A stretch of DNA of 64,000 nucleotides from a virus. Below the pieces are notes generated by a model, which saw only the letters and a list, made by a program, of their open reading frames with translations, ran no database searches and was not told the DNA's origin. Position 1 is the first letter of the stretch. Every line of letters starts with the position of its first letter. Below, piece by piece: positions 1,679 through 63,362 of the stretch. A program made the translations under genes and the position numbers. The stretch is from positions 32,001-96,000 of IMG/VR virus record IMGVR_UViG_3300036985_006248; one strand, 5' to 3'.

Positions 1679-4600
1679 TTAGTTAAGCCCCCCAGAAGGG
1701 TCGTCGCGTTCAGCTAAGTATATTTTAGCAGAAATAATCGATCTATTTACCGCAGTGGTATATTTTGGATCTTGTAAGCTGGTAATCTCATGATTATTTC
1801 CTGCTGAATTTACTTCAACATTAATTAGTGTCTTTAAGGATATTAATTCTGTTGCGGTACTGAACATTGCACCTATAGTGCTGCGCTCATACGTAGCCGC
1901 CTGTACTCTTACTAACACACTTTCTCTTATTTGTGCCGGTGTAAGCTCCTGTGGGGTCGGTGGTGCATTATCACTTGACACTTGGGCATTGAGTTGACTC
2001 GTTATTCTACCGCCTGCGCCGCGAGGCGTGGCTGTGTTTACGACTTCTTCTACGGTAGCTGCGGCACCGAAACCTTGTTGAGTTGTTTGTGGAGCTACGG
2101 TCAATGTATTAGTTGAAATAATTCTCGACGGCAATACCGGTAAACGCTTTTGTGAAGTAGCGTTTATTACCGCAGCATCTTCTTCTAGCTTATACTTTCC
2201 AGTTTGGATGGGGTTACTACGGTCAAGATAATACAAGTCTTGGTTAAATGTGTCTTTGCAAACAACTCCAGCGGCAGACGACATATTCTTTTCTAGATTT
2301 GAGCTAGCATCGTTTACCATATCATCCAGAGGCTTTTCATCATACCAAGCTAAAGTAGCAAAATAAGCAATTGCTAATAGCGGGTTAGTAAACGGCAATG
2401 GACAAGTGAATGGAGAAATTATTGTACCAAGTGGAATAGAAACGGCTGGTATAATAAAGGACGGCAACTTAGGCACAAAGATTCTTGCAACTTTAAATGC
2501 AGTGGAGGTGAGCGCAATATTAGGCTCTGTAATTTCTGCCATGCCCTTAATGATACCAATCGGAGTTTTAAACAAGGTCTGAACTATAAAGCCCATGATT
2601 ATTTCCATCGGGTCTACGGCCATTGATTGTGCATCATTTGGGTTTTTAGCTATTTCTTGCCCATTTGCTTGTATTACCTTGCAAGTTGTCATTATATCGT
2701 TTTTAGTACCACGGAAGACATTATTGACTAATTGTTTTCTCGTGCAGGTAGACAAGCAATTTAAAATAAAGAAATTATTAAGAGTATGAGAAATTGGAAA
2801 TAGAAATTTAAACAAGAAATCAAATTCCGGGTCACTAATAAACGCTTTCAATAAATCGTTGCCTTCTAGGAATGTTCCTCTTGCGTTTTTAGATTCATAA
2901 ATCTTTTGGTATATAAATACGTCCGGTCTGCTTCCTACCGCAACTGGGGCATATTTTAATTTCAACTTAATATAAACTCCAGTACCACTCACAGAAATAA
3001 CATCCATGTTAGCTATATCATCGTTTAGATTGATGAGGTTTATAGGATTATCTTTTGGAGTATTACCTACTAAGGCGAGGTTTGTATCCGCATTAATTCT
3101 CTTGGCAAGTTTTGGTAATACATAATTCTTTAATTCCTTTCCTACTAAGTCTCTAAATAATTGTGATTTTTTATTTTCTTCATTTACTGTCTTGGCATCT
3201 GGATTTTTATCTTTGTATGACCTGAATAAAAACTCGCTTAATAGAACAAAGAATGCATTGTCTGTTGAACGCATTTCAGACTCAACCATTTTTGCCATGA
3301 AAGATATAAAGGCTGGTTCGTCTCTTAGTGATTGTGGATCATAGTACCCAAAGATTGATATACCTCTCAGCAGAATATCATGCAAGAAGATTCTTGTTGT
3401 CAAATCATACATTCCGCGTAACATAGAATTTTGGGTAGAAGTTGTTTCTATCTCTTTTAATTCATCGGGATTTATTGGTTTGTTACCAACAACTCTGCTA
3501 TCGGCAATTTTTTCAATACAGAGATTGCTAGACTTCTCATCAGCTATGTTATTTTTTATTGAATCGATATCAAGATAATGTGGTCTTATACCACAAGCTT
3601 TTTGGTTTGCTGTCTGTTTAACAACCAGTTTTAAATATTGAGTATACGGTTGCCCAGAACCAGATTCTGTAGCCGCAGAAACTTGATCACTACTGAGATC
3701 TTTTAGGAGAAGAAATTTATTGTCTTTAGACAAAATCTTATTAGATATATTTTTATAGATTCTATCATTCAAATCTTCAAAGCAAACGTAAATATATTCT
3801 CTAGGTTCATCCACGGGTGTGCCCATTAATGTGCCTTGCTTATTTATAAAGCCATATTTTTCTTGTTTATTTTTTATATATCGAGTAAAGATATTCGCTT
3901 TGCTGTTTGGAACTAAAATTCTGCGGGAAGCTGATCCCCTTCCGGAAGCTGATCCACTTCCTACAAAGAGATCAGTGATGTACTGATTTATATCGCTTGA
4001 AACATTATTTATTTCTGTGATTTTAATAAAGTTCTTTTTATTTTTTTGTATTTTAAGCTTTTGAATATCATAAAAACGGGTTCCATCAAACATTGGTACC
4101 GATAACGTATCATTAACTTTAAGATTATCTATTCCTGTTTGGTAATCTACATCAAAATCAGGATAGTTAATTTTTACTTTAAGCATTGTTCTATAAAAAC
4201 TTTTAACATTTACGTAATTGGTTGTGATATCAAGCAATTCTTGCGGCTGAAATCCTAAGCCATTAATGATGGCGCTTCTTACGTTGACGTTGGTTAATAA
4301 CATTTCACATATAACAAGGTAAATAGCTGTGCCATTTTCTGCTGCGAAGAACCCATTTGCCTCTTGGGCATCGCCTATTCCCAATACTTTATATGCGTCT
4401 TTTAGTTTAAATCTTAGTTCTTCTGCATCAGCCACATTACTTCTTAGAAAAGAATCGATAGTGTATAATAAGCCAACTAGAGGACTTAGATCTTTAAATG
4501 CCTTAGATGAAGAAATGTCATACGCTTCATTAATCGACAAATTCTTAACAGCGTTGGAAATATCTTGCCCATGAACACGTAAAACTTCTTTCCATAATTT

Positions 4601-7600
4601 CTTCGCAAATCCTAATAGACGTATTTCTTCGGTCTGTATCTTTTCAGTAAGTTGAGTATCGATAAAGTTTAAATCTAGCTTTAATTGATCGTTACCATTT
4701 ATATTGTTAGAATATAATATGTATGATGCGTCCCCAAGGTTTTTAAACTTGACTGGCTCTGAAGCGGGGTTACTTAATAAATCTTTGAAAATAAAAGATG
4801 GTAATTTGGTTTCCTCAATACCGGTTGAAGCACTGCCAGATAATGCTTCATATTCCTTGCGTTCCGCTTCAGACGCCTTGGGAGAATTAGCTTTAAGAGA
4901 TAATGTTTGATTTTTATCAATAGTTATTTCACTAGCCGGTATAGTAACTATTTCACCCTCGTGTTGTGCGTCTCCTAAATTAAATTTTAGTATATTGGGC
5001 TTGGAAGACTTTACGGAATAGGAAGTCTTATACCATTCTTCTGCTTCTCTATCAAAGCTGTCATAAACACTTCTTAGCATTGAATTAAGCATGTTTGTAA
5101 AGCTTTGCATAGAAGGAGCAATTGTCTCCCCACTAGGAAAAATTTTGCATCCTAAATCTGGAACTTGAGAAAAATCAAATGGGTTATCTGAATTCAGTAA
5201 TTTTAATACATCTTCTAACGCTTTTATTTCATCGTTCTTTAAGGATTCTAACGCTGCGTCAATCAAATCCGGGGTCAATCCATGATCAGCAAGAATTTGT
5301 TCTCTTAATTTTTTTACTGAACCATCATCGCATAGAATATTTATTCCACTATTTGCTGAAGAAGGTGTTTCTGGGGATAAAATATCTGTGCATATTGTCA
5401 AATCTAGTTTATTACCCAATGCCCTAAAGAAACGAGCTACTTGCTCTCTTGTACCAAAAGCCTCTGAGAACGGTGAACCATATTTTCTTTTTACTAGGGA
5501 AATAATTACTTGGTAAACTTCATCGTTAACGGTTGAACCGCTATATAGGGAGCACATCTCTTTTAAGGACATACAAGCTGTTATATCTTGAATGATATTT
5601 TTAAACTTTTCCATCGCAGCTTCTTTTTCTGCGGCTGACATTACACCGGACGCTGAATTGAGCGGGCTCAACGATTCGTTGAATACATCACTTAAAGCCG
5701 TATCAGCAGCGGCGGGGGATGAACCAAAAGGGTTAGCAGGACTTCCAGATGCATTAAAATTTGCATTAGGATTGGATGTACAGGCTTTTGCTGCTGCCTC
5801 TAATGCTTTTTGTATTCCAAAAGAGATTAAGTCGTTTATTATTTTAATAAATATTGTTTCTAACTCTCGTGCTAATGTTTCGCTTGGATTATATGCTTTC
5901 AAAACAGGCAACTCAAACCCGTTAATAAATTTCAAACCATTTTTTAAATATGTGTTGTAGACAGAACCGGATAATATCTGTTCAATGAATTCTTGTGCAT
6001 CCTTATATTTATCCATTAGTTTCAACAAATCTTCTATTGGAATTGGTTGTGATAAGCACTGTGCAGCAACACCTAGAAACTTTGCCCAATCTAATGATTT
6101 TGCTATTGAAATATATTTAGCTAATTTATCTTTTGGAGATACACCCGGCATAGTATCTATACCAAATAGAATTCTCATATTTTTGTCTTTAATTAAATCT
6201 CGCTCTAGTATAGAGCGCATAAAGAGATCGCCTTCGATTTTTATTTTATTTTTTTCGTATGCCTTATTAATATTTAGCCACTTACTTCTTTCTGCCCGTT
6301 CCCGAATAGAATTCAAGTCAGCCACTCTCGTGCCAGTATCAATTATTGAGTTGAACAAATCAAGCGTTTGCTCGGTCATATCAATAATGGTAGGGTAATG
6401 CTTTGTTGTTAAAAAGTTTCTTATTTGTTTATCTATATCGGCAGACAACGTGGATAAAGAGGCGACACTGCCCGCTACAGAGCCCAACAAAGACGTGGCA
6501 TTATCTGCCACTGAGCCTAACAAAGACGTGGCATTAGCTGCCACTGAGGAGGTCGAATTAAGAGTGGAGAAGGCGTTGCTTATTATCGAAGTTGAATCAT
6601 CGGCTAGAGAAACAGTATCCGAAATTGAATTAGATAAATCTGTTGTTACCGAAGAAGATAAATTTTGAGCTTTTTCAACTATATCTTGTAAATGCAGTGG
6701 ATCAGGTGCGTCTTTTATAGGATCAAAAGACATGCAATAATTAATTGTTGTTTTATTTAAAACTTCGGGCGATCTTAAATAAGCGAGCCAGCCCGTATTT
6801 AAAGTATACTGTCTACCTTGTGAATAATATTTGACTGCTTTAAGAGTTATTGTTTTTTTATCGATAATAAAATCTAAAGAATTTTCCCATACTAATTCAG
6901 GTGGCAAAAGAAAATTTACACTAGTGCTTTTAATCTTTTGAGGCTGGTTGACAGATATCAGTTTGTTAGTTGATTCAACAAACATTTTTATGTTACCTAT
7001 TTCGGATAATAAATTAAGTCCAACATCTGGGGCGATAATCCATAATTTTGTTAATAATGCGGCTTGATACATTCCCAAGGTTAAAGTTAAATTATCAAAG
7101 AAAAACTTATATTTTTGATAATTTTCAAATTTTAGTACAAAATCGGTATCTATTACTGGGGTGTTTTGCGATATATCTGTTGCTATACTATCATCAGATA
7201 CCATATCAGGTGTAGGAATCGAGGTACCCGTTGTGTTAGTCAACCCCCGCCCGCCGACGTCGGTTTTGGCATATAAATAACGTTTTGGTATCGCCACGGC
7301 AACTCTTAGAGTAGAGCAAGGACGAACATCTATGTACCAATCTTCAGCAGTGGAAAATGAATAAAAATCATTTAGCAACTCTCGTAATTGTTGTTCATCA
7401 TATTTAAAACCGGTATGGTCTAGGATGAGTTTGGTGCCCTTTTTTCTAGCCTCATCCATATGAGCGGCGAGGGCGGTAGAATCTCCCACCACTACCGTGT
7501 CTTCTAGCTCACAATGGACAATAAAAGCACCATTACGTGTATCTTCATAAGGTATATTTGGTGTCTGTGCTTTCCAATTAATTTCTGGCGCTGTTATATC

Positions 7601-7897
7601 AGGCAGATTCTTGGCTTCGCCGTTTACAGAAAAGAAAGACTTATGTTCTGGTAGCGGTGCTATAGTGCCCAAAAACTCTATGTAGCCGATGCGTTGATCG
7701 CTTGTTTTAATCTTGCACCATTTGCCTCCTGAGCCTATACCGTGTTCGTAAACAAAGATCACTTCCCCATCTTGTAAAATAGAAGAACTCTCTTTATTAA
7801 GAAAAAATTCTTCTTCTGTAAAAAAAAATACAGGAGAAAACACAACGTGCGTTGGAAAATTCTTCAGCGGTACTTTGATAGAGTTTGGATTGAACAT
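1679..7897 (-). CDS. Very large (2072 aa) putative virion/baseplate-associated protein
   Basis: Long ORF inside the baseplate operon; no catalytic motif recognised. Confidence 0.5.
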   Translation of the reverse strand: MFNPNSIKVPLKNFPTHVVFSPVFFFTEEEFFLNKESSSILQDGEVIFVYEHGIGSGGKWCKIKTSDQRIGYIEFLGTIAPLPEHKSFFSVNGEAKNLPDITAPEINWKAQTPNIPYEDTRNGAFIVHCELEDTVVVGDSTALAAHMDEARKKGTKLILDHTGFKYDEQQLRELLNDFYSFSTAEDWYIDVRPCSTLRVAVAIPKRYLYAKTDVGGRGLTNTTGTSIPTPDMVSDDSIATDISQNTPVIDTDFVLKFENYQKYKFFFDNLTLTLGMYQAALLTKLWIIAPDVGLNLLSEIGNIKMFVESTNKLISVNQPQKIKSTSVNFLLPPELVWENSLDFIIDKKTITLKAVKYYSQGRQYTLNTGWLAYLRSPEVLNKTTINYCMSFDPIKDAPDPLHLQDIVEKAQNLSSSVTTDLSNSISDTVSLADDSTSIISNAFSTLNSTSSVAANATSLLGSVADNATSLLGSVAGSVASLSTLSADIDKQIRNFLTTKHYPTIIDMTEQTLDLFNSIIDTGTRVADLNSIRERAERSKWLNINKAYEKNKIKIEGDLFMRSILERDLIKDKNMRILFGIDTMPGVSPKDKLAKYISIAKSLDWAKFLGVAAQCLSQPIPIEDLLKLMDKYKDAQEFIEQILSGSVYNTYLKNGLKFINGFELPVLKAYNPSETLARELETIFIKIINDLISFGIQKALEAAAKACTSNPNANFNASGSPANPFGSSPAAADTALSDVFNESLSPLNSASGVMSAAEKEAAMEKFKNIIQDITACMSLKEMCSLYSGSTVNDEVYQVIISLVKRKYGSPFSEAFGTREQVARFFRALGNKLDLTICTDILSPETPSSANSGINILCDDGSVKKLREQILADHGLTPDLIDAALESLKNDEIKALEDVLKLLNSDNPFDFSQVPDLGCKIFPSGETIAPSMQSFTNMLNSMLRSVYDSFDREAEEWYKTSYSVKSSKPNILKFNLGDAQHEGEIVTIPASEITIDKNQTLSLKANSPKASEAERKEYEALSGSASTGIEETKLPSFIFKDLLSNPASEPVKFKNLGDASYILYSNNINGNDQLKLDLNFIDTQLTEKIQTEEIRLLGFAKKLWKEVLRVHGQDISNAVKNLSINEAYDISSSKAFKDLSPLVGLLYTIDSFLRSNVADAEELRFKLKDAYKVLGIGDAQEANGFFAAENGTAIYLVICEMLLTNVNVRSAIINGLGFQPQELLDITTNYVNVKSFYRTMLKVKINYPDFDVDYQTGIDNLKVNDTLSVPMFDGTRFYDIQKLKIQKNKKNFIKITEINNVSSDINQYITDLFVGSGSASGRGSASRRILVPNSKANIFTRYIKNKQEKYGFINKQGTLMGTPVDEPREYIYVCFEDLNDRIYKNISNKILSKDNKFLLLKDLSSDQVSAATESGSGQPYTQYLKLVVKQTANQKACGIRPHYLDIDSIKNNIADEKSSNLCIEKIADSRVVGNKPINPDELKEIETTSTQNSMLRGMYDLTTRIFLHDILLRGISIFGYYDPQSLRDEPAFISFMAKMVESEMRSTDNAFFVLLSEFLFRSYKDKNPDAKTVNEENKKSQLFRDLVGKELKNYVLPKLAKRINADTNLALVGNTPKDNPINLINLNDDIANMDVISVSGTGVYIKLKLKYAPVAVGSRPDVFIYQKIYESKNARGTFLEGNDLLKAFISDPEFDFLFKFLFPISHTLNNFFILNCLSTCTRKQLVNNVFRGTKNDIMTTCKVIQANGQEIAKNPNDAQSMAVDPMEIIMGFIVQTLFKTPIGIIKGMAEITEPNIALTSTAFKVARIFVPKLPSFIIPAVSIPLGTIISPFTCPLPFTNPLLAIAYFATLAWYDEKPLDDMVNDASSNLEKNMSSAAGVVCKDTFNQDLYYLDRSNPIQTGKYKLEEDAAVINATSQKRLPVLPSRIISTNTLTVAPQTTQQGFGAAATVEEVVNTATPRGAGGRITSQLNAQVSSDNAPPTPQELTPAQIRESVLVRVQAATYERSTIGAMFSTATELISLKTLINVEVNSAGNNHEITSLQDPKYTTAVNRSIISAKIYLAERDDPSGGLN

Positions 7898-22297: not shown

Positions 22298-22546
22298 TTA
22301 TTTTTTTGTTTGTGGAGAAGATTCTAAATCTGTTACTGCTTGTTGATACCCACGCATAAAATTCTCTTCTGCAATTAACATAAGAAATTCTGGGAATTCT
22401 TTTAACATCTGTTCCACAATCAGAAGCACAGTTACATTACCATCTTTTGGTTGTCGGGTTTCCCCAACATAATTAACTAACCATTCCTTCATCGGGTTAT
22501 CTTTAGATACTACTTCTGATTGTGGACTTTCCATTTTTGTCATCAT
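22298..22546 (-). CDS. Hypothetical protein
   Basis: ORF in the operon. Confidence 0.55.
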   Translation of the reverse strand: MMTKMESPQSEVVSKDNPMKEWLVNYVGETRQPKDGNVTVLLIVEQMLKEFPEFLMLIAEENFMRGYQQAVTDLESSPQTKK

Positions 22547-25083
22547 TATAAAATATCGGCTGCTAATGTAGCGACAGAACTTCTTTCGCCGCGTTTTAAT
22601 GCCACATGCCCCACCAATTCATAAGGTTTCATTTTTTCTATCACGTATGTCAGCCCGTTGGTAGTTGCATCAACATATTGATTATCGATCTGATAAATAT
22701 CCCCCGTTAGTACAATCTTCGTTCCTTCACCAACGCGAGTGATTATAGTCTTTAATTCATGAGAGGTTAAATTTTGTGATTCGTCAATGATAATATATGC
22801 GTTTGAAATTGAACGACCGCGAATATAGGTTAATGCTTCCATTTCGATTGTGCCAGCTTCCATCATCATTCTCATGTGCTCTTTATTACTTCCTAACAGG
22901 AATTCCAAGTTATCTTGCACGGGAGCTAACCACGGAGTCATCTTTTCTTCTAGGGTATTGTGAGTTACGATAAAATCATTGGTTACGTAAAGATGTTCTT
23001 TATTTTCCACAAGAATACATTGTGCTTCTTTTTTTCCAACAAGCTCAATGCTTTTGATACCAACTCCTTGAATATACTTTGTAGAATGTCGTGAAGCTTT
23101 TCTTGAAATGTAGAAAGGATTAATATTTTGTGGTAATGAGACAGTAAACTCATATGATATTCTACGAGAATTTATCTCTCTTCCATCGATATATGACTTC
23201 TTTCCAACTCTATTTCTTTCTTTAATGACAGCTCTTCCACCGAGCGAACGAACCAACTCTTGCATATCTTTAGCGAGTTGCAAAGAGGTTGTAGTAAAAG
23301 ATGATTCTCCGTTTGTTTTTACGGTACCATCTGTATCCATCAATCCTTTTAATAAATTAATTCGGTCTTGCACGCACGAAAACTTATAGATCTCTGGGAT
23401 AAATTTTTCCCACGCTTTTTTATTAGATAAATGTAAGTTATCAAGTATATTTTTTATAGGATTTTGCCAACGGTTTGAACGTTCGGTAAACTCATATTTG
23501 ATTCCATCAATTATTGTGTTGTTATCGCAGCGAGATTGCAGGGTACTTCTGTTAATATTTAATACTTCTAAAGATTTTCCAATACTAGGAAAAGTTGTTT
23601 TTTCTAATGTTTTAACATTAGTTATAGTAACTTGTCTAGCGGGCTTATTATTGTAGAGATCAGTTCTAATGTTGTAAGTAATTGTCTTTCCATCGTTTGT
23701 TAATCTACAGCCTAATGATTTAATTTCATTTTCTACTCTTTTTATCAGTTCATGGTCGGTATTACAAACACTTATATTATTTTTAATACACCCGTCACCC
23801 AATAATACTCCAAGAGTGTATGCAGGAAGAGGCAATTCTTTATCGGTATACTGTACTGGCGAAACTCTAGGTAAAAAGTGATTTAATTTGCCGTTGGTGG
23901 TTTTAAAAGTATCGATAATCTGTTTAGTTGTTCTAACTTGACCATGCTTATTACGCTTTTTTTCTTCAAATGTCCTAGTTAACCACAAGTGGTCTTCACA
24001 ACATTCCGTAGAAGAATCATCGGTAGTTGTAACTTTATAAATTAGTTTCTTCCCCTTCGGAAACACACCTAAAACTCTAGTTGGACTGCCGTCTCGCCCA
24101 ATGACATTATCTCCAACTTTGATAGAGCCCATTTCAACCCAACCAGTAGGAGTAGCCAATTTTGCATCCAGTGGTTGTGGTCCCGGAAGGAAACCGATGT
24201 CTTTTCCCATTGGCTGCACTGGACGGGAGACAATAAGTTTTGTATATATCTTATCTTCAAGGATTTGTTGTAGCCCAGCCGCCAGAGCAATCAAAGTCTT
24301 GCCGCTACCAGCCTTGCCGATAAGAGAAACAATCTTCACTTCTGGATCCATTAGTGAATCAAGAGCAAATTGTTGCTCTTTGTTCTTAGCGTGAACTCCA
24401 AATATGCCACCCTTGAACTCCTTTACTTTAACTAATGATTGGCTGTAGGACTTGAATCTAGCTAAGGCAGACTTTTTCTCATTGGTGTTAGAAACCAACA
24501 TAACATATTCGTTAGCAAAAAGATTAATCTCTTTTTCGAGCAAATAAATCTTATCATTTTTGTGGAATCGATCAATGACAGCATCATCGACTACATGTTG
24601 TTTATAACCAATAAAGACTTCTTCGGCTCGTTCTACTACTTGGTTTGGAACATAGTCTTCAGTTAGGATGCCCAGTGAGTCGCATTTAACTCTCATGTTA
24701 ATATCTTGGGATACTAACACGACGTTCTTATTATCCCCGAGTTTACGTATGAGCGTTAAAGTTGAGGCTATGATTTGATTATCCGGGACGCTCTTTTCAA
24801 AACTGTCTGGTAGTAAAGATAAATCGCAGGGAAGTACCGAGACGCTACCCTTGCCCTTACCAAGCTTAATCTCGTCTTGTAGACTGCCTTTTTCTCGTAA
24901 TCCATCAAGAGTACGAATAAATTGTCTTGCATTAACACCAACACCGTCTTGACGCTTTTTGTGCTTATCAACTTCTTCCAACACCTTAAGAGGAATCCCA
25001 ACATCGTTGTTCTTATAGGCAAAGATAGCATCACAATCGCTTAAATAAACGTTTGTGTCCAAGACATAGTATTTTTTAGACAT
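22546..25083 (-). CDS. phoH: PIN-PhoH family ATPase containing an intein
   Basis: VLDTNV PIN domain, GKAGSGKT, GFLPG, YIRGRS, IIDESQN, TRVGEG and GDIYQID motifs. Confidence 0.92.
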   Translation of the reverse strand: MSKKYYVLDTNVYLSDCDAIFAYKNNDVGIPLKVLEEVDKHKKRQDGVGVNARQFIRTLDGLREKGSLQDEIKLGKGKGSVSVLPCDLSLLPDSFEKSVPDNQIIASTLTLIRKLGDNKNVVLVSQDINMRVKCDSLGILTEDYVPNQVVERAEEVFIGYKQHVVDDAVIDRFHKNDKIYLLEKEINLFANEYVMLVSNTNEKKSALARFKSYSQSLVKVKEFKGGIFGVHAKNKEQQFALDSLMDPEVKIVSLIGKAGSGKTLIALAAGLQQILEDKIYTKLIVSRPVQPMGKDIGFLPGPQPLDAKLATPTGWVEMGSIKVGDNVIGRDGSPTRVLGVFPKGKKLIYKVTTTDDSSTECCEDHLWLTRTFEEKKRNKHGQVRTTKQIIDTFKTTNGKLNHFLPRVSPVQYTDKELPLPAYTLGVLLGDGCIKNNISVCNTDHELIKRVENEIKSLGCRLTNDGKTITYNIRTDLYNNKPARQVTITNVKTLEKTTFPSIGKSLEVLNINRSTLQSRCDNNTIIDGIKYEFTERSNRWQNPIKNILDNLHLSNKKAWEKFIPEIYKFSCVQDRINLLKGLMDTDGTVKTNGESSFTTTSLQLAKDMQELVRSLGGRAVIKERNRVGKKSYIDGREINSRRISYEFTVSLPQNINPFYISRKASRHSTKYIQGVGIKSIELVGKKEAQCILVENKEHLYVTNDFIVTHNTLEEKMTPWLAPVQDNLEFLLGSNKEHMRMMMEAGTIEMEALTYIRGRSISNAYIIIDESQNLTSHELKTIITRVGEGTKIVLTGDIYQIDNQYVDATTNGLTYVIEKMKPYELVGHVALKRGERSSVATLAADIL
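22957..24180 (-). mobile_element. Intein (408 aa) with LAGLIDADG endonuclease, class 3 signature
   Basis: Junctions GFLPG|PQPLDA...VTHN|TLEEK; LGVLLGDG and LKGLMDTDG motifs; WCT triad. Confidence 0.9.
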
Positions 25084-56048: not shown

Positions 56049-56669
56049 TTAACTTCTACGCGACCTCTTTCCCTTGAAGATATTTTCAATGCCGCTGGAA
56101 CCGTCAAGCCAATTCTTAGGGACGCTAGCGCGAATTTCGTCTGCGGGGCGGCGCGTCAAGACTCTGACACCGTGGTCCTCATTTGCTTTATTCTTCGCGT
56201 TGACAGCGTTCGCTCGGAATGAATAACCGTATGAACTGTTACTGGTAAGGCCACGTCCCATAAGCGGACGTGAATAACAATTTTTTGATTGAATGTCATC
56301 CCAGCTAATAGATTCAAGTAGATACAGGTCGTCAGAAGCCAACCCTTCCAATGTATCAAAGTCTTGGACTACACCACCGAGGTTCTTGTAATATTTGTCA
56401 TAGAGGGTAATCAATGAACCAACCCCTAAACCATTCTCAGCCATATTATCAAGCACTCGCGCTCTGAATGCGGCGTTTTCCTTGATATAGTTAATCTTGT
56501 TGCCTTTGAGAACAATACAGGTGGGTCGGGTATGACCAGAGTCCCCGCAGTAACTACAGGTACGCACCTTAGCGGTCAGCTTGGTAATAGCCTTTTGTTC
56601 TGGCGTGAGCAGGTGGCAGGTACGTCTGTTATGACCCTTAGCTCCACAATATCTGCAATGTCGCATCAT
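56049..56669 (-). CDS. Double CCHC zinc-knuckle protein
   Basis: CRYCGAKGHNRRTC and CSYCGDSGHTRPTC. Confidence 0.7.
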   Translation of the reverse strand: MMRHCRYCGAKGHNRRTCHLLTPEQKAITKLTAKVRTCSYCGDSGHTRPTCIVLKGNKINYIKENAAFRARVLDNMAENGLGVGSLITLYDKYYKNLGGVVQDFDTLEGLASDDLYLLESISWDDIQSKNCYSRPLMGRGLTSNSSYGYSFRANAVNAKNKANEDHGVRVLTRRPADEIRASVPKNWLDGSSGIENIFKGKRSRRS

Positions 56670-56842
56670 GATATAAGCCCGTTCCCTTCTTGACTGCGCG
56701 GTTCCCCTACTGATATACCTATAATACACCCACCTTGCCCACACGTCCACATCTTTTTGCATGAACAGTTCTAATCGATGCCCTCGTGCCTATTAGCCTT
56801 TTTTACTAGGACATGGCGGCTAGCTATGATATGGTGGATAAT

Positions 56843-57397
56843 TTATCCATTTAGCCCAGACCCAGACCCAGACCAAATAAAGCAGCGAGTAATTCTCACG
56901 TTTCACCAGACCCAGACCAAGACCCAGACCAAGACCAAGACCAAGACCCAGACCTAGACCTAGACCAAATAAAGCAGCGAGTAATTCTCACGTTTCACCA
57001 GACCAAGACCTAGACCCAGACCAAGACCAAGACCAAGACCTAGACCAAGACCCAGACCCAGACCTAGACCAAGACCCAGACCTAGACCCAGACCTAGACC
57101 AAGACCCAGACCAAGACCCAGACCAAGACCCAGACCAAGACCCAGACCTAGACCCAGACCTAGACCAAGACCCAGACCAAGACCCAGACCAAATAAAGCA
57201 GCGAGTAATTCTCACGTTTCACCAGACCCAGACCAAGACCCAGACCTAGACCCAGACCTAGACCAAGACCAAGACCCAGACCCAGACCCAGACCCAGACC
57301 CAGACCTAGACCCAGACCTAGACCCAGACCAAGACCCAGACCCAGACCCAGACCAAGACCCAGACCTAGACCAAATAAAGCAGCGAGTAATTCTCAT
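56843..57397 (-). repeat. Array of four coupled MRITRCFIW-(Ser-X)n mini-ORFs (57212-57397, 56988-57215, 56896-56991, 56843-56899)
   Basis: Constant TGAGAATTACTCGCTGCTTTATTTGGTCT x4, separated by runs of TCT(G/A/T)GG hexamers. Confidence 0.9.
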
Positions 57398-57399
57398 TG

Positions 57400-57684
57400 T
57401 CACTTCATGCGGATAAGTGCAGTGCCGCCTCGGTCAATAACCATTTCAAAAGCGCCTTCATGCTTCTGAACATCTTTCCCTTTGCCTGAGAAAAACTCCT
57501 TGTAGGTGCCGCTTTCGTAAACAGTGGCGGTATCAGTAAAGACAAACACTGTTCCGGTAACAGAATTCAATGTACCAGTATAGTGCAAAGTAGGAGTGCG
57601 AATATAATACTTAGCGCCAATCTTAAAGATTCCTTCTGACAATTCACCATCAGCAGCGACTTCGCGGGCATCATTGACGTTCAT
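57400..57684 (-). CDS. Small beta-rich protein, Sm/Hfq-like fold suspected
   Basis: IGAKYYIRTPTLHYTGTL..V...FVFTD...VIDRGG pattern. Confidence 0.5.
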   Translation of the reverse strand: MNVNDAREVAADGELSEGIFKIGAKYYIRTPTLHYTGTLNSVTGTVFVFTDTATVYESGTYKEFFSGKGKDVQKHEGAFEMVIDRGGTALIRMK

Positions 57685-58098
57685 GTGTTTTCCTTTGGTT
57701 AGTTACTTAAGACAGAATACACCCCTTCTGGCAGTACGTCGAGAGCTTTTTGCATGAACAGTTCTAATGTCACATGCTATACTATAAGAGGTTTTACTTG
57801 ATAGTTGGCGGCTAGGTCACTCCCACACCCCGCGAGTATAGTATACCATAGGGTGCTGGGGATATCCAGTGAAAGAATCTACTAGAAGGGTCACGCGCTA
57901 TAAGAGCTATTAATGCACGCCAGCCGCCCGCATGGTCCTATTATAGCATGGCGCTAGCGAGACGTCAATTGAATCTTTCTTATAGGAGCTATTAATACTT
58001 CTATCAGTAGACAGCCTTATTGAATATCGATATACATATTATTCTTTCTTGTAGCCCTGTATATGTTCCCGTGGTACTGTAGTTTGTGGATGAAGAGC

Positions 58099-62366: not shown

Positions 62367-63362
62367 TTATATTTTGTTAGGACTTTCTGACCAGTGGATT
62401 TTCACTTCTGGGACTTGTTCTGCTATCCACTCCTTCATCATACTCTCACTATTGAAGGAAAGCAAGCTTCCTTTTTTATCGTAGGCTTTCCATACTCCTA
62501 AGCTACGAAGAATATCAACCTTATTAACCACGAGATCGGTTACACCATTGATATCAATAGCCTTTTTTAAGAGTGACACATTTATCCAGTTGCATTGACG
62601 AGGGCGACCCGTGGTTGCACCGTACTCATTTCCTAATTCACGAATCTTTTTGAAGATTGGCTCGTCTGGTTCATATTTTTTGCCACCGACGTAGGTTTCA
62701 TACATTTTAGTAACACCCCAAACTTTACTGATTTTCCTAGGTGGCACTCCATTGAGAATAGCGGCTCCAACTGTACATGAGGAACTGGTTACATAAGGAT
62801 AGTCACCCCAATCTATATCTAAACCAAAGCCTTGAGCCCCTTCAAATAGAATGCGGTGCTTGTCTTTGCTAGAATATAATTCTTCATATAGGTCTATCAG
62901 ATAAGGTTTAAGTATTTCAACTTGTTCTGCTCTTAGCCCTTGTCTTGAATACTTATCAGCATAAGCTGGCCCGTTGCCGCGTTTAGTGGTGCCAATCTTA
63001 ACATCTTTTCTATCTTGCTCTAAATGTTCTTCCGTGATGATATGTACGTTCTTAGCGATGTAAACCAAGCCTTCAGTTTTAACACCCGCTTCAGTCAGCT
63101 CTTTCAATTCATCAAAGAACTGTTTAACATTCATAACACAACCGGGGCCAATGATAGACTTTATACCCATCACTACACCAGTTGGTATTGAATGAGTTAC
63201 AATCTTCTTTCCTTCATGGTATATTGTGTGGCCTGCGTTATTCGAACCTTGAAACCTTATACAATGTGTATATTCACCGCTTTTACAAAGCTGATGACAT
63301 ACTTTACCTTTACCGCTATCACCATACGCCAAATCTACTATTACGTCTGCAAACTCAATCAT
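62367..63362 (-). CDS. purA: Adenylosuccinate synthetase (short form)
   Basis: GDSGKGK, NAGHT, GTTKRGNGPAY, EGAQG, YPYVTSS and GATTGRPR motifs. Confidence 0.92.
   Translation of the reverse strand: MIEFADVIVDLAYGDSGKGKVCHQLCKSGEYTHCIRFQGSNNAGHTIYHEGKKIVTHSIPTGVVMGIKSIIGPGCVMNVKQFFDELKELTEAGVKTEGLVYIAKNVHIITEEHLEQDRKDVKIGTTKRGNGPAYADKYSRQGLRAEQVEILKPYLIDLYEELYSSKDKHRILFEGAQGFGLDIDWGDYPYVTSSSCTVGAAILNGVPPRKISKVWGVTKMYETYVGGKKYEPDEPIFKKIRELGNEYGATTGRPRQCNWINVSLLKKAIDINGVTDLVVNKVDILRSLGVWKAYDKKGSLLSFNSESMMKEWIAEQVPEVKIHWSESPNKI

Follow-up and report, generated by a model that had tools for sequence, protein, structure and literature searches.

Several eukaryotic proteins combine an Sm/LSm barrel with a basic, low-complexity, disordered Gly/Arg region, among them SmD1, SmD3, SmB, and LSm4, through their tails, and the P-body proteins LSm14/Scd6 and EDC3. 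Alternating Ser-Arg or Gly-Arg low complexity is also characteristic of the RS domains of SR proteins and of RGG/RG boxes, whose function is set by composition. Expansion of GGGGCC in C9orf72 gives rise to poly-GR and poly-PR, Arg-rich dipeptide repeats that bind nucleic acids and ribosomes and that arise in disease by non-ATG translation of several frames. [quoted passage not shown] We describe here a phage locus in which a predicted Sm/LSm-fold protein is encoded next to an array of small Ser-X repeat peptides, X being Gly, Arg, or Trp. The locus lies in a 64,000-nucleotide stretch of DNA, the whole of which we call the window, comprising bases 32001 to 96000 of a 174,280-bp IMG/VR virus record (completeness rating, 96%) from an uncultured phage.

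The pairing of an Sm fold with basic, low-complexity peptides parallels the tailed eukaryotic LSm proteins, and the likeness comes from the predicted fold: in this bacterial virus the barrel and the tail are separate genes, the tail repeats a Ser-X dipeptide strictly and includes Trp, and the protein has no sequence match to the LSm model. In contrast to RS domains and RGG boxes, the phage peptides are free-standing, 18 to 117 aa long, and ~12% Trp, they begin with a conserved N-terminal leader, and no kinase or methyltransferase partner is evident. Unlike the C9orf72 products, they are read in one frame with their own start codon, leader, and stop, and they are conserved across many phages. 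A constant repeat of ~38 nt alternating with variable stretches also recalls CRISPR arrays, but the phage stretches are low-complexity hexamer runs of 18 to 186 nt, whereas CRISPR spacers are unique and of fixed size, and each phage constant unit holds a start codon and an in-frame leader. We rejected a CRISPR-like array because three hexamers, in 3 to 31 copies, make up the would-be spacers, which are neither unique nor uniform in length. As for T4, tblastn with the window protein and with two related families (families 1 and 2, described below) matched no Tevenvirinae record, a comparison made at the level of sequence, and the text of the T4 paper mentions no repeat-peptide partner. The first-pass annotation named no described function for such gene pairs, and we too found no description of the Sm-like/Ser-X module in Pfam, PHROGs, GenBank phage annotation, or the literature, peptide strings included.

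The module occupies the minus strand, with a 94-aa ORF (57400 to 57684) followed by four repeat ORFs of 61, 75, 31, and 18 aa. Peptide gene 1 (57212 to 57397) starts with ATG, has its stop within a GTGA, and consists of a leader (57371 to 57397), 24 TCT-NGG hexamers (57227 to 57370), and a terminal S-G-E-T, with a net charge of +6. Genes 2 to 4 start with GTG. Gene 2 (56988 to 57215; leader, 57189 to 57215) has 31 hexamers (57003 to 57188), S-G-E-T, a charge of +8, and 13 Trp; gene 3 (56896 to 56991; leader, 56965 to 56991) has 9 hexamers (56911 to 56964) and S-G-E-T; and gene 4 (56843 to 56899; leader, 56873 to 56899), possibly a decayed last unit, has 3 hexamers (56855 to 56872) and ends in L-N-G. 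The leader, MRITRCFIW, is encoded by an identical 27 nt in all four, and the first three share a C-terminal GET. GTGA overlaps join ORFs 1 and 2, 2 and 3, and 3 and 4, and the gap between the 94-aa gene and ORF 1 is 2 nt. Made up of TCTGGTGAAAC and the 27-nt leader, the constant unit measures 38 nt, and successive units therefore each lie in a different frame. The hexamers are exclusively TCTGGG, TCTAGG, or TCTTGG. All 58 matches in the 174-kb genome to four consecutive GGTCTN fall inside the 0.5 kb of this locus, compared with 2 matches for a reversed control pattern, which excludes a chance origin of the array, and neither the leader, nor the hexamer run, nor the 94-aa gene has a second copy elsewhere in the genome. 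A consensus scan placed a sigma-70-like promoter candidate, TTGACG-17-TATAAT with TG (11/12 matches), on the minus strand at 57968 to 57940, ~255 nt upstream of the Sm-like gene. Just upstream of that gene, on the same strand, lies a 53-nt direct repeat (D3; 57716 to 57768), whose second copy (56723 to 56775; 79% identity) precedes the next gene and contains, in the same type of scan, a weaker promoter-like TGGACG-17-TATTAT. The first-pass annotation had set out the 94-aa gene, the four GTGA-chained ORFs with their lengths, the hexamer arrays, and the promoter, and ORF coordinates, hexamer counts, and the promoter scan agree with it in every detail.

The AlphaFold2 model of the product of 57400 to 57684 alone, built with 49 homologs, reached a pLDDT of 95.1 and a pTM of 0.82, with a helix at residues 3 to 17 followed by strands. 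Sm/LSm chains fill nearly all of the top rows in Foldseek (TM up to 0.75 by target; E, 0.016 to 0.16), and VIA-align, which is independent of Foldseek, gave Z scores of 8.9 to 6.6 for ~35 Sm/LSm entries, with an rmsd of ~2 Å over 57 to 72 residues. Those of EDC3 and LSm14, matched through their LSm domains, rank near the top (Z, 8.1 to 8.2), and Hfq matches with a Z of ~6. Unrelated small barrels at their best come near a Z of 8, so the weight lies in the consistency of the list. We confidently predict, at the level of fold, an Sm/LSm-type bent five-stranded antiparallel beta-barrel with an N-terminal helix, which bears out the Sm-like identity first proposed for this gene. Pfam holds no family for the protein at E values up to 1, and a profile of the 49 homologs compared with all PDB sequences returned only the LSm domain of Edc3, at an E value of 1.5, and no Sm sequence match. 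A D-R-G-G / G-R-G-A stretch near the C terminus resembles the R-G of Sm2, by eye only; given no match to the Sm/LSm sequence model, the canonical RNA pocket may be absent.

A word-based protein search identified three homologs, at 72, 71, and 63% identity, and an exhaustive profile search identified 52 cluster representatives, reaching members of family 2 directly. Families 1 and 2 are the two small protein families of which one precedes most arrays, the former of ~87 aa and ending in IESFGxLK, the latter of ~112 aa with IRTVT...ASWVADTGRF. Profile comparison with hhalign indicates that the window subfamily is homologous to both (95.5%, E of 1.5e-8, for family 1; 97.7%, E of 1.9e-12, for family 2), and neither these families nor the window protein has a match in Pfam or PHROGs. 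Against GenBank phages (50,697 records), blastn of a 2.5-kb region and tblastn of the 94-aa protein gave no match, and tblastn with families 1 and 2 gave one metagenomic record each; in these two records the match is unannotated or labeled hypothetical. No relative turned up when viral contigs were searched with a back-translated pattern of the window protein, and the atlas neighbors of the protein are viral clusters named "hypothetical protein." In three relatives (P0015, P0018, and P0028), the Sm-like domain occurs twice in a single chain, and such tandem duplications hint at self-association. The longer profile matches and eight longer family 1 relatives are extended only at the N terminus or by unrelated sequence, and none fuses the Sm-like domain to a Ser-X tail, which is weak evidence on the point.

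Evidence that the two components belong together comes from other phages. A scan of viral contigs for six GGTCTN hexamers returned at least 120 stretches, and the gene pair, missing from Pfam and PHROGs, occurs in well over a hundred uncultured phage contigs. Association was tested by hmmsearch with three group profiles over all loci fetched by DNA pattern only. The Sm-like family was found in 71 of 94 Ser-[GRW] loci among the matches listed, compared with 4 of 146 loci with other repeats, and in 58 of those 94 it ends at most 150 nt upstream of the array; 10 of the 23 misses have no upstream sequence. Reciprocally, in a contig fetched by its family 1 protein alone (L265) and binned with a Patescibacteria metagenome-assembled genome (MAG), a 57-aa peptide gene immediately follows the partner gene. 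Stop-start overlap between the partner gene and the first peptide gene is common, and the window likewise places a homologous partner directly upstream, on the same strand, of a leader-bearing Ser-X ORF with NGG hexamers, an association that is nonrandom across loci. The first-pass annotation had suggested a two-component module and mentioned similar pairs in other phages, and both proposals hold. Its expectation that homologs would have adjacent repeat ORFs was borne out in part: peptides follow the Sm-like gene in L005 and L253, L006 (71% identity) keeps only a short repeat remnant, and L007 and L252, two of the six close homologs, have no peptides, so the partner can exist alone. Tandem copy number ranges from 1 to ~20 units per locus. 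Two viral contigs have ~13 to 20 peptide genes in a row, each with a leader (MITKR[TS][KR]WRR, MRYLFEGS) and many CGG or CAG codons (Arg, Gln). In GenBank record MW202825.1, an Sm-like gene and a first peptide gene (1756 to 1933) are unannotated, and a second peptide is a "hypothetical protein."

Whether the repeats are genes is ambiguous from the window alone, as the variable base is also silent in a (Leu-Gly)n frame and in a plus-strand (Pro-Arg)n frame. The question is settled by relatives that keep the leader at the amino acid level with other codons. The leader start M-[RK]-[IL]-[TS]-R is common to three lineages of the window subfamily despite widely different DNA, with the fifth-codon Arg written as CGC, AGA, or AGG. 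L005 (72% identity) has two downstream units with a different constant sequence, the leader MKLSRPFNY, and AGGAG five nt before the ATG of the second unit, and L253 (48%) carries three or more units with the leader MKLTRQVH..., also shows a GTGA overlap, and uses both TCT and TCA for Ser. Stop codons tell the same story. In 68 loci among the matches listed, C is never seen at the variable base, which is always A, G, or T. X is encoded in these arrays by GGG (816), AGG (709), and TGG (705), and NAG at this codon is GAG (55), AAG (33), CAG (2), or TAG (0), where the share of T before GG would predict ~28 TAG (probability near 1e-15). This avoidance of TAG is confined to the Ser-X frame. In a few loci the variable base is T, C, or G, and the Gly/Arg/Trp set is retained with Arg as CGG. 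In all, 135 unique peptides from 78 loci among the matches listed have a start codon, a short leader, and a Ser-X tail, and strong Shine-Dalgarno sites are frequent before the peptide genes of these loci. Translation in the Ser-X frame is very probable on this comparative evidence, and we are confident that the ORFs are genes under protein-level selection and that the Sm-like/peptide pair is a conserved module. Gene callers often omit the peptide genes or call the wrong strand. If made, the peptides would be, as far as we found, the first dipeptide-repeat microproteins described in bacterial viruses and a natural case of composition-only proteins encoded by unstable hexamer arrays. Readthrough of the stop of the 94-aa gene was considered and rejected, as L005 has three consecutive stops.

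The composition of the peptides bears on their function. Among the matches listed, the 135 peptides are 39% Ser, 14% Gly, 14% Arg, and 11.5% Trp, with a median length of 65 aa and a median charge of +10; partner proteins have a median charge of -3, and the window protein one of -1. All nine G/R/W neighbor pairs occur at 0.93 to 1.06 of expectation, and the order of G, R, and W is statistically random. Among the roles listed in the first-pass annotation, nucleic acid binding of the RS/RGG type fits these data best, and a beta-solenoid or amyloid decoy finds nothing in its support, with the order random. The leaders differ with the partner, having a charge of at least +3 in 29 of 34 cases behind family 1 and of at most +1 in 7 of 7 behind family 2, where they are neutral or hydrophobic. 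This covariation may come from shared descent alone, which could explain it as well as contact could.

Our preferred reading, held tentatively and with slightly less than even confidence, is that the peptides are disordered, composition-driven, nucleic acid-binding polycations that act early with the Sm-like partner, linked to it by the leader. One transcription unit would supply the Sm/LSm-fold protein and four translationally coupled microproteins, each made of a 9-residue leader and a presumably disordered tail in which Ser alternates with Gly, Arg, or Trp. The tails would be flexible and polycationic, Arg and Trp making the contacts and Ser and Gly spacing them, and could bind RNA or DNA through composition rather than sequence. 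Acting with the Sm-like protein in early infection, near replication and recombination genes, the peptides might provide it with basic tails in trans or be a partner that forms condensates. The leader varies with the Sm-like subfamily and would be the point of attachment between peptide and protein. To judge from the titles of structure entries 6f9w and 6am0, the LSm domains of EDC3 and LSm14 bind short peptide motifs. Complex prediction for the Sm-like protein with the 31-aa peptide, run without controls, scored 0.00, below the mark. Because only composition would matter, slippage could lengthen, shorten, and reorder the arrays freely, which would account for their variability. The pairing offers a directly testable way into RNA or DNA handling, or condensates, in phage-infected bacteria.

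A narrower form of the idea, which we consider unlikely, is a phage granule kit in which an LSm hub and sticker (Arg, Trp)-and-spacer (Ser, Gly) microproteins condense with RNA or single-stranded DNA (ssDNA). The product could be a membrane-less compartment for early replication and recombination or a trap for host RNA, and the hexamer code would let slippage tune tail length and valency quickly.

Somewhat less probable again is that the peptides are directed at the host, as putatively toxic or inhibitory Arg/Trp polycations acting on ribosomes, nucleoid, or membranes, with the Sm-like protein as chaperone or antidote. Arg/Trp antimicrobial peptides and poly-GR/PR damage or shut off cell processes, and the high positive charge and Trp content of the phage peptides, the position of the module in the early region, and the provision of several doses per operon, preceded by a mildly acidic partner, would all suit such a role. 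However, half of the residues in the phage peptides are Ser, which sets them apart from known Arg/Trp antimicrobial peptides, they have no hydrophobic or amphipathic segments, and most loci show no link to lysis genes.

The variability of the arrays bears on a further alternative, in which the peptides are decoys or inhibitors of a host defense or protease and the hexamer code is kept for fast diversification. Four independent metagenome contigs from other samples contain the same 94-aa gene and the array start, matching the flank at 99 to 100% over 0.4 to 1.2 kb, and the first array differs from that of the window and among the contigs, with the caveat that short-read assemblers may misorder repeats. 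These differences fit rapid reshuffling, and the first-pass suggestion that the array diversifies by slippage and unit duplication is in keeping with them, since near-identical phages have different arrays, the outcome expected of slippage or unit shuffling. An arms race would profit from such differences behind nearly identical flanks, from copy numbers of 1 to ~20, and from a code in which G, R, and W interconvert by one base change and the only reachable stop, TAG, is absent. Yet the random order of G, R, and W and a composition nearly constant in all phages fit neutral shuffling better than directional selection, the possible misordering of repeats in short-read assemblies weakens the comparison, and the sampled loci have no conserved defense-related neighbor. 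We regard an arms-race role as improbable. A diversity-generating retroelement was also considered; all four arrays vary, and none resembles a template. In practical terms, short-read assemblies break at the arrays, whose variation in length might be used to tell strains apart.

That the repeats act as DNA or RNA, as a protein-binding array, a structured RNA, or a recombination hot spot, with the ORFs incidental, is very unlikely. One argument for it is that the wobble is nearly invariant while a nonwobble base varies: in the 68 loci among the matches listed, TCT outnumbers synonymous Ser codons 2,393 to 34, and GGG at X outnumbers other Gly codons 816 to 28. Such invariance is unlike plain purifying selection and needs ongoing array turnover (slippage, conversion) or an added nucleotide-level constraint. 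UCUNGG can also self-pair with G-U pairs, and the variable base of the window is silent in the Leu-Gly and plus-strand Pro-Arg frames as well. As a side property, the GGG runs might form G-quadruplexes. Across phages, however, the peptide and leader are unchanged as Ser passes among TCT, TCG, TCA, and AGC and Arg between AGG and CGG. A second scan, for AGC-NGG arrays, recovered the same peptides and leader types with Ser as AGC, amid many unrelated simple repeats; the same peptides and leaders occur elsewhere in phages with Ser as AGC, TCG, or TCA and Arg as CGG; and one peptide in MW202825 mixes TCG and TCT Ser with CGG Arg. Avoidance of TAG solely in the Ser-X frame and the start codons and Shine-Dalgarno sites before each unit also stand against a nucleic acid role. 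The competing frames fare poorly: (Leu-Gly)n has no start in the window and a stop in L005, and the 38-nt unit interrupts the (Pro-Arg)n and (Asp-X)n frames of the plus strand, whereas all genes are on the other strand. An RNA of NAG triplets like that bound by TRAP was rejected for the wrong strand and the wrong fold. Between 40 and 64 kb, Rfam at a relaxed threshold gave tRNA-type matches and none to the array.

Just as unlikely is the option, raised in the first-pass annotation, of leader-plus-core precursors of the RiPP type, with the Sm-like protein as recognition element. A conserved short leader before a variable core, several tandem precursor copies, and the covariation of leader and partner all recall such systems, but no modifying enzyme is conserved beside the module, a radical SAM protein being 1 of 20 sampled neighbors and absent from the window, and a 9-residue leader with a core of up to ~100 residues does not resemble known RiPP classes.

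The exact number and length of units in the window rest on one short-read assembly. In L010 (437 to 1359), which JGI assembled from the same phage, the first array passes into (GAT)9, after which the Ser-X frame stays open for ~270 codons of unrelated, GC-richer sequence; the contig is probably a chimeric assembly through low-complexity sequence. That the four-unit array is an artifact of a shorter locus is most improbable: two Logan contigs break inside unit 1 and L010 looks chimeric, but L011 shows unit 1 and then the start of unit 2 independently of the window assembly, relatives have two and at least three units and other phages many more, and an artifact could alter the unit count but not the existence of the genes.

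In other loci the module lies in an early region, mostly among genes of replication and recombination; sampled neighbors include UvsX, ERF, a PD-(D/E)XK nuclease, helicases, DNA polymerase A, DnaB, and AAA_24; close homologs are flanked by DNA polymerase A and DprA. Nearly all long ORFs of the window are on the minus strand. Its GC content is ~36%, rising to 44 to 52% between 42 and 58 kb, a richer block that holds the module and a cluster of 14 of the 15 tRNA genes (48.2 to 50.8 kb). The next genes encode a CCHC zinc-knuckle protein and an AAA_5 ATPase, and the other neighbors in the window are proteins without a family. The first of these (56049 to 56762, minus strand), directly downstream of the module, has two retroviral-type CCHC knuckles near its N terminus (C-x2-C-x4-H-x4-C twice) and no significant match to a Pfam or PHROG family. 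Translation probably begins at the ATG-ATG near 56670, past the promoter-like 53-nt repeat, and the protein is a possible nucleic acid-binding neighbor of the module. Elsewhere in the window, a 2,072-aa ORF (1679 to 7897, minus strand) has no PHROG match at an E value of 1e-5, and a 331-aa protein (62367 to 63362, minus strand) matches phrog_1211 (2-aminooxy adenylosuccinate synthetase) with an E value of 1.7e-68, a label that resembles PurZ, which would suggest a 2-aminoadenine (Z-base) genome. An 845-aa PhoH-like protein (22546 to 25083, minus strand) matches terminase, DnaC-like, and primase PHROGs at residues ~302 to 603, a pattern typical of an inserted intein or homing element, which its middle part may represent.
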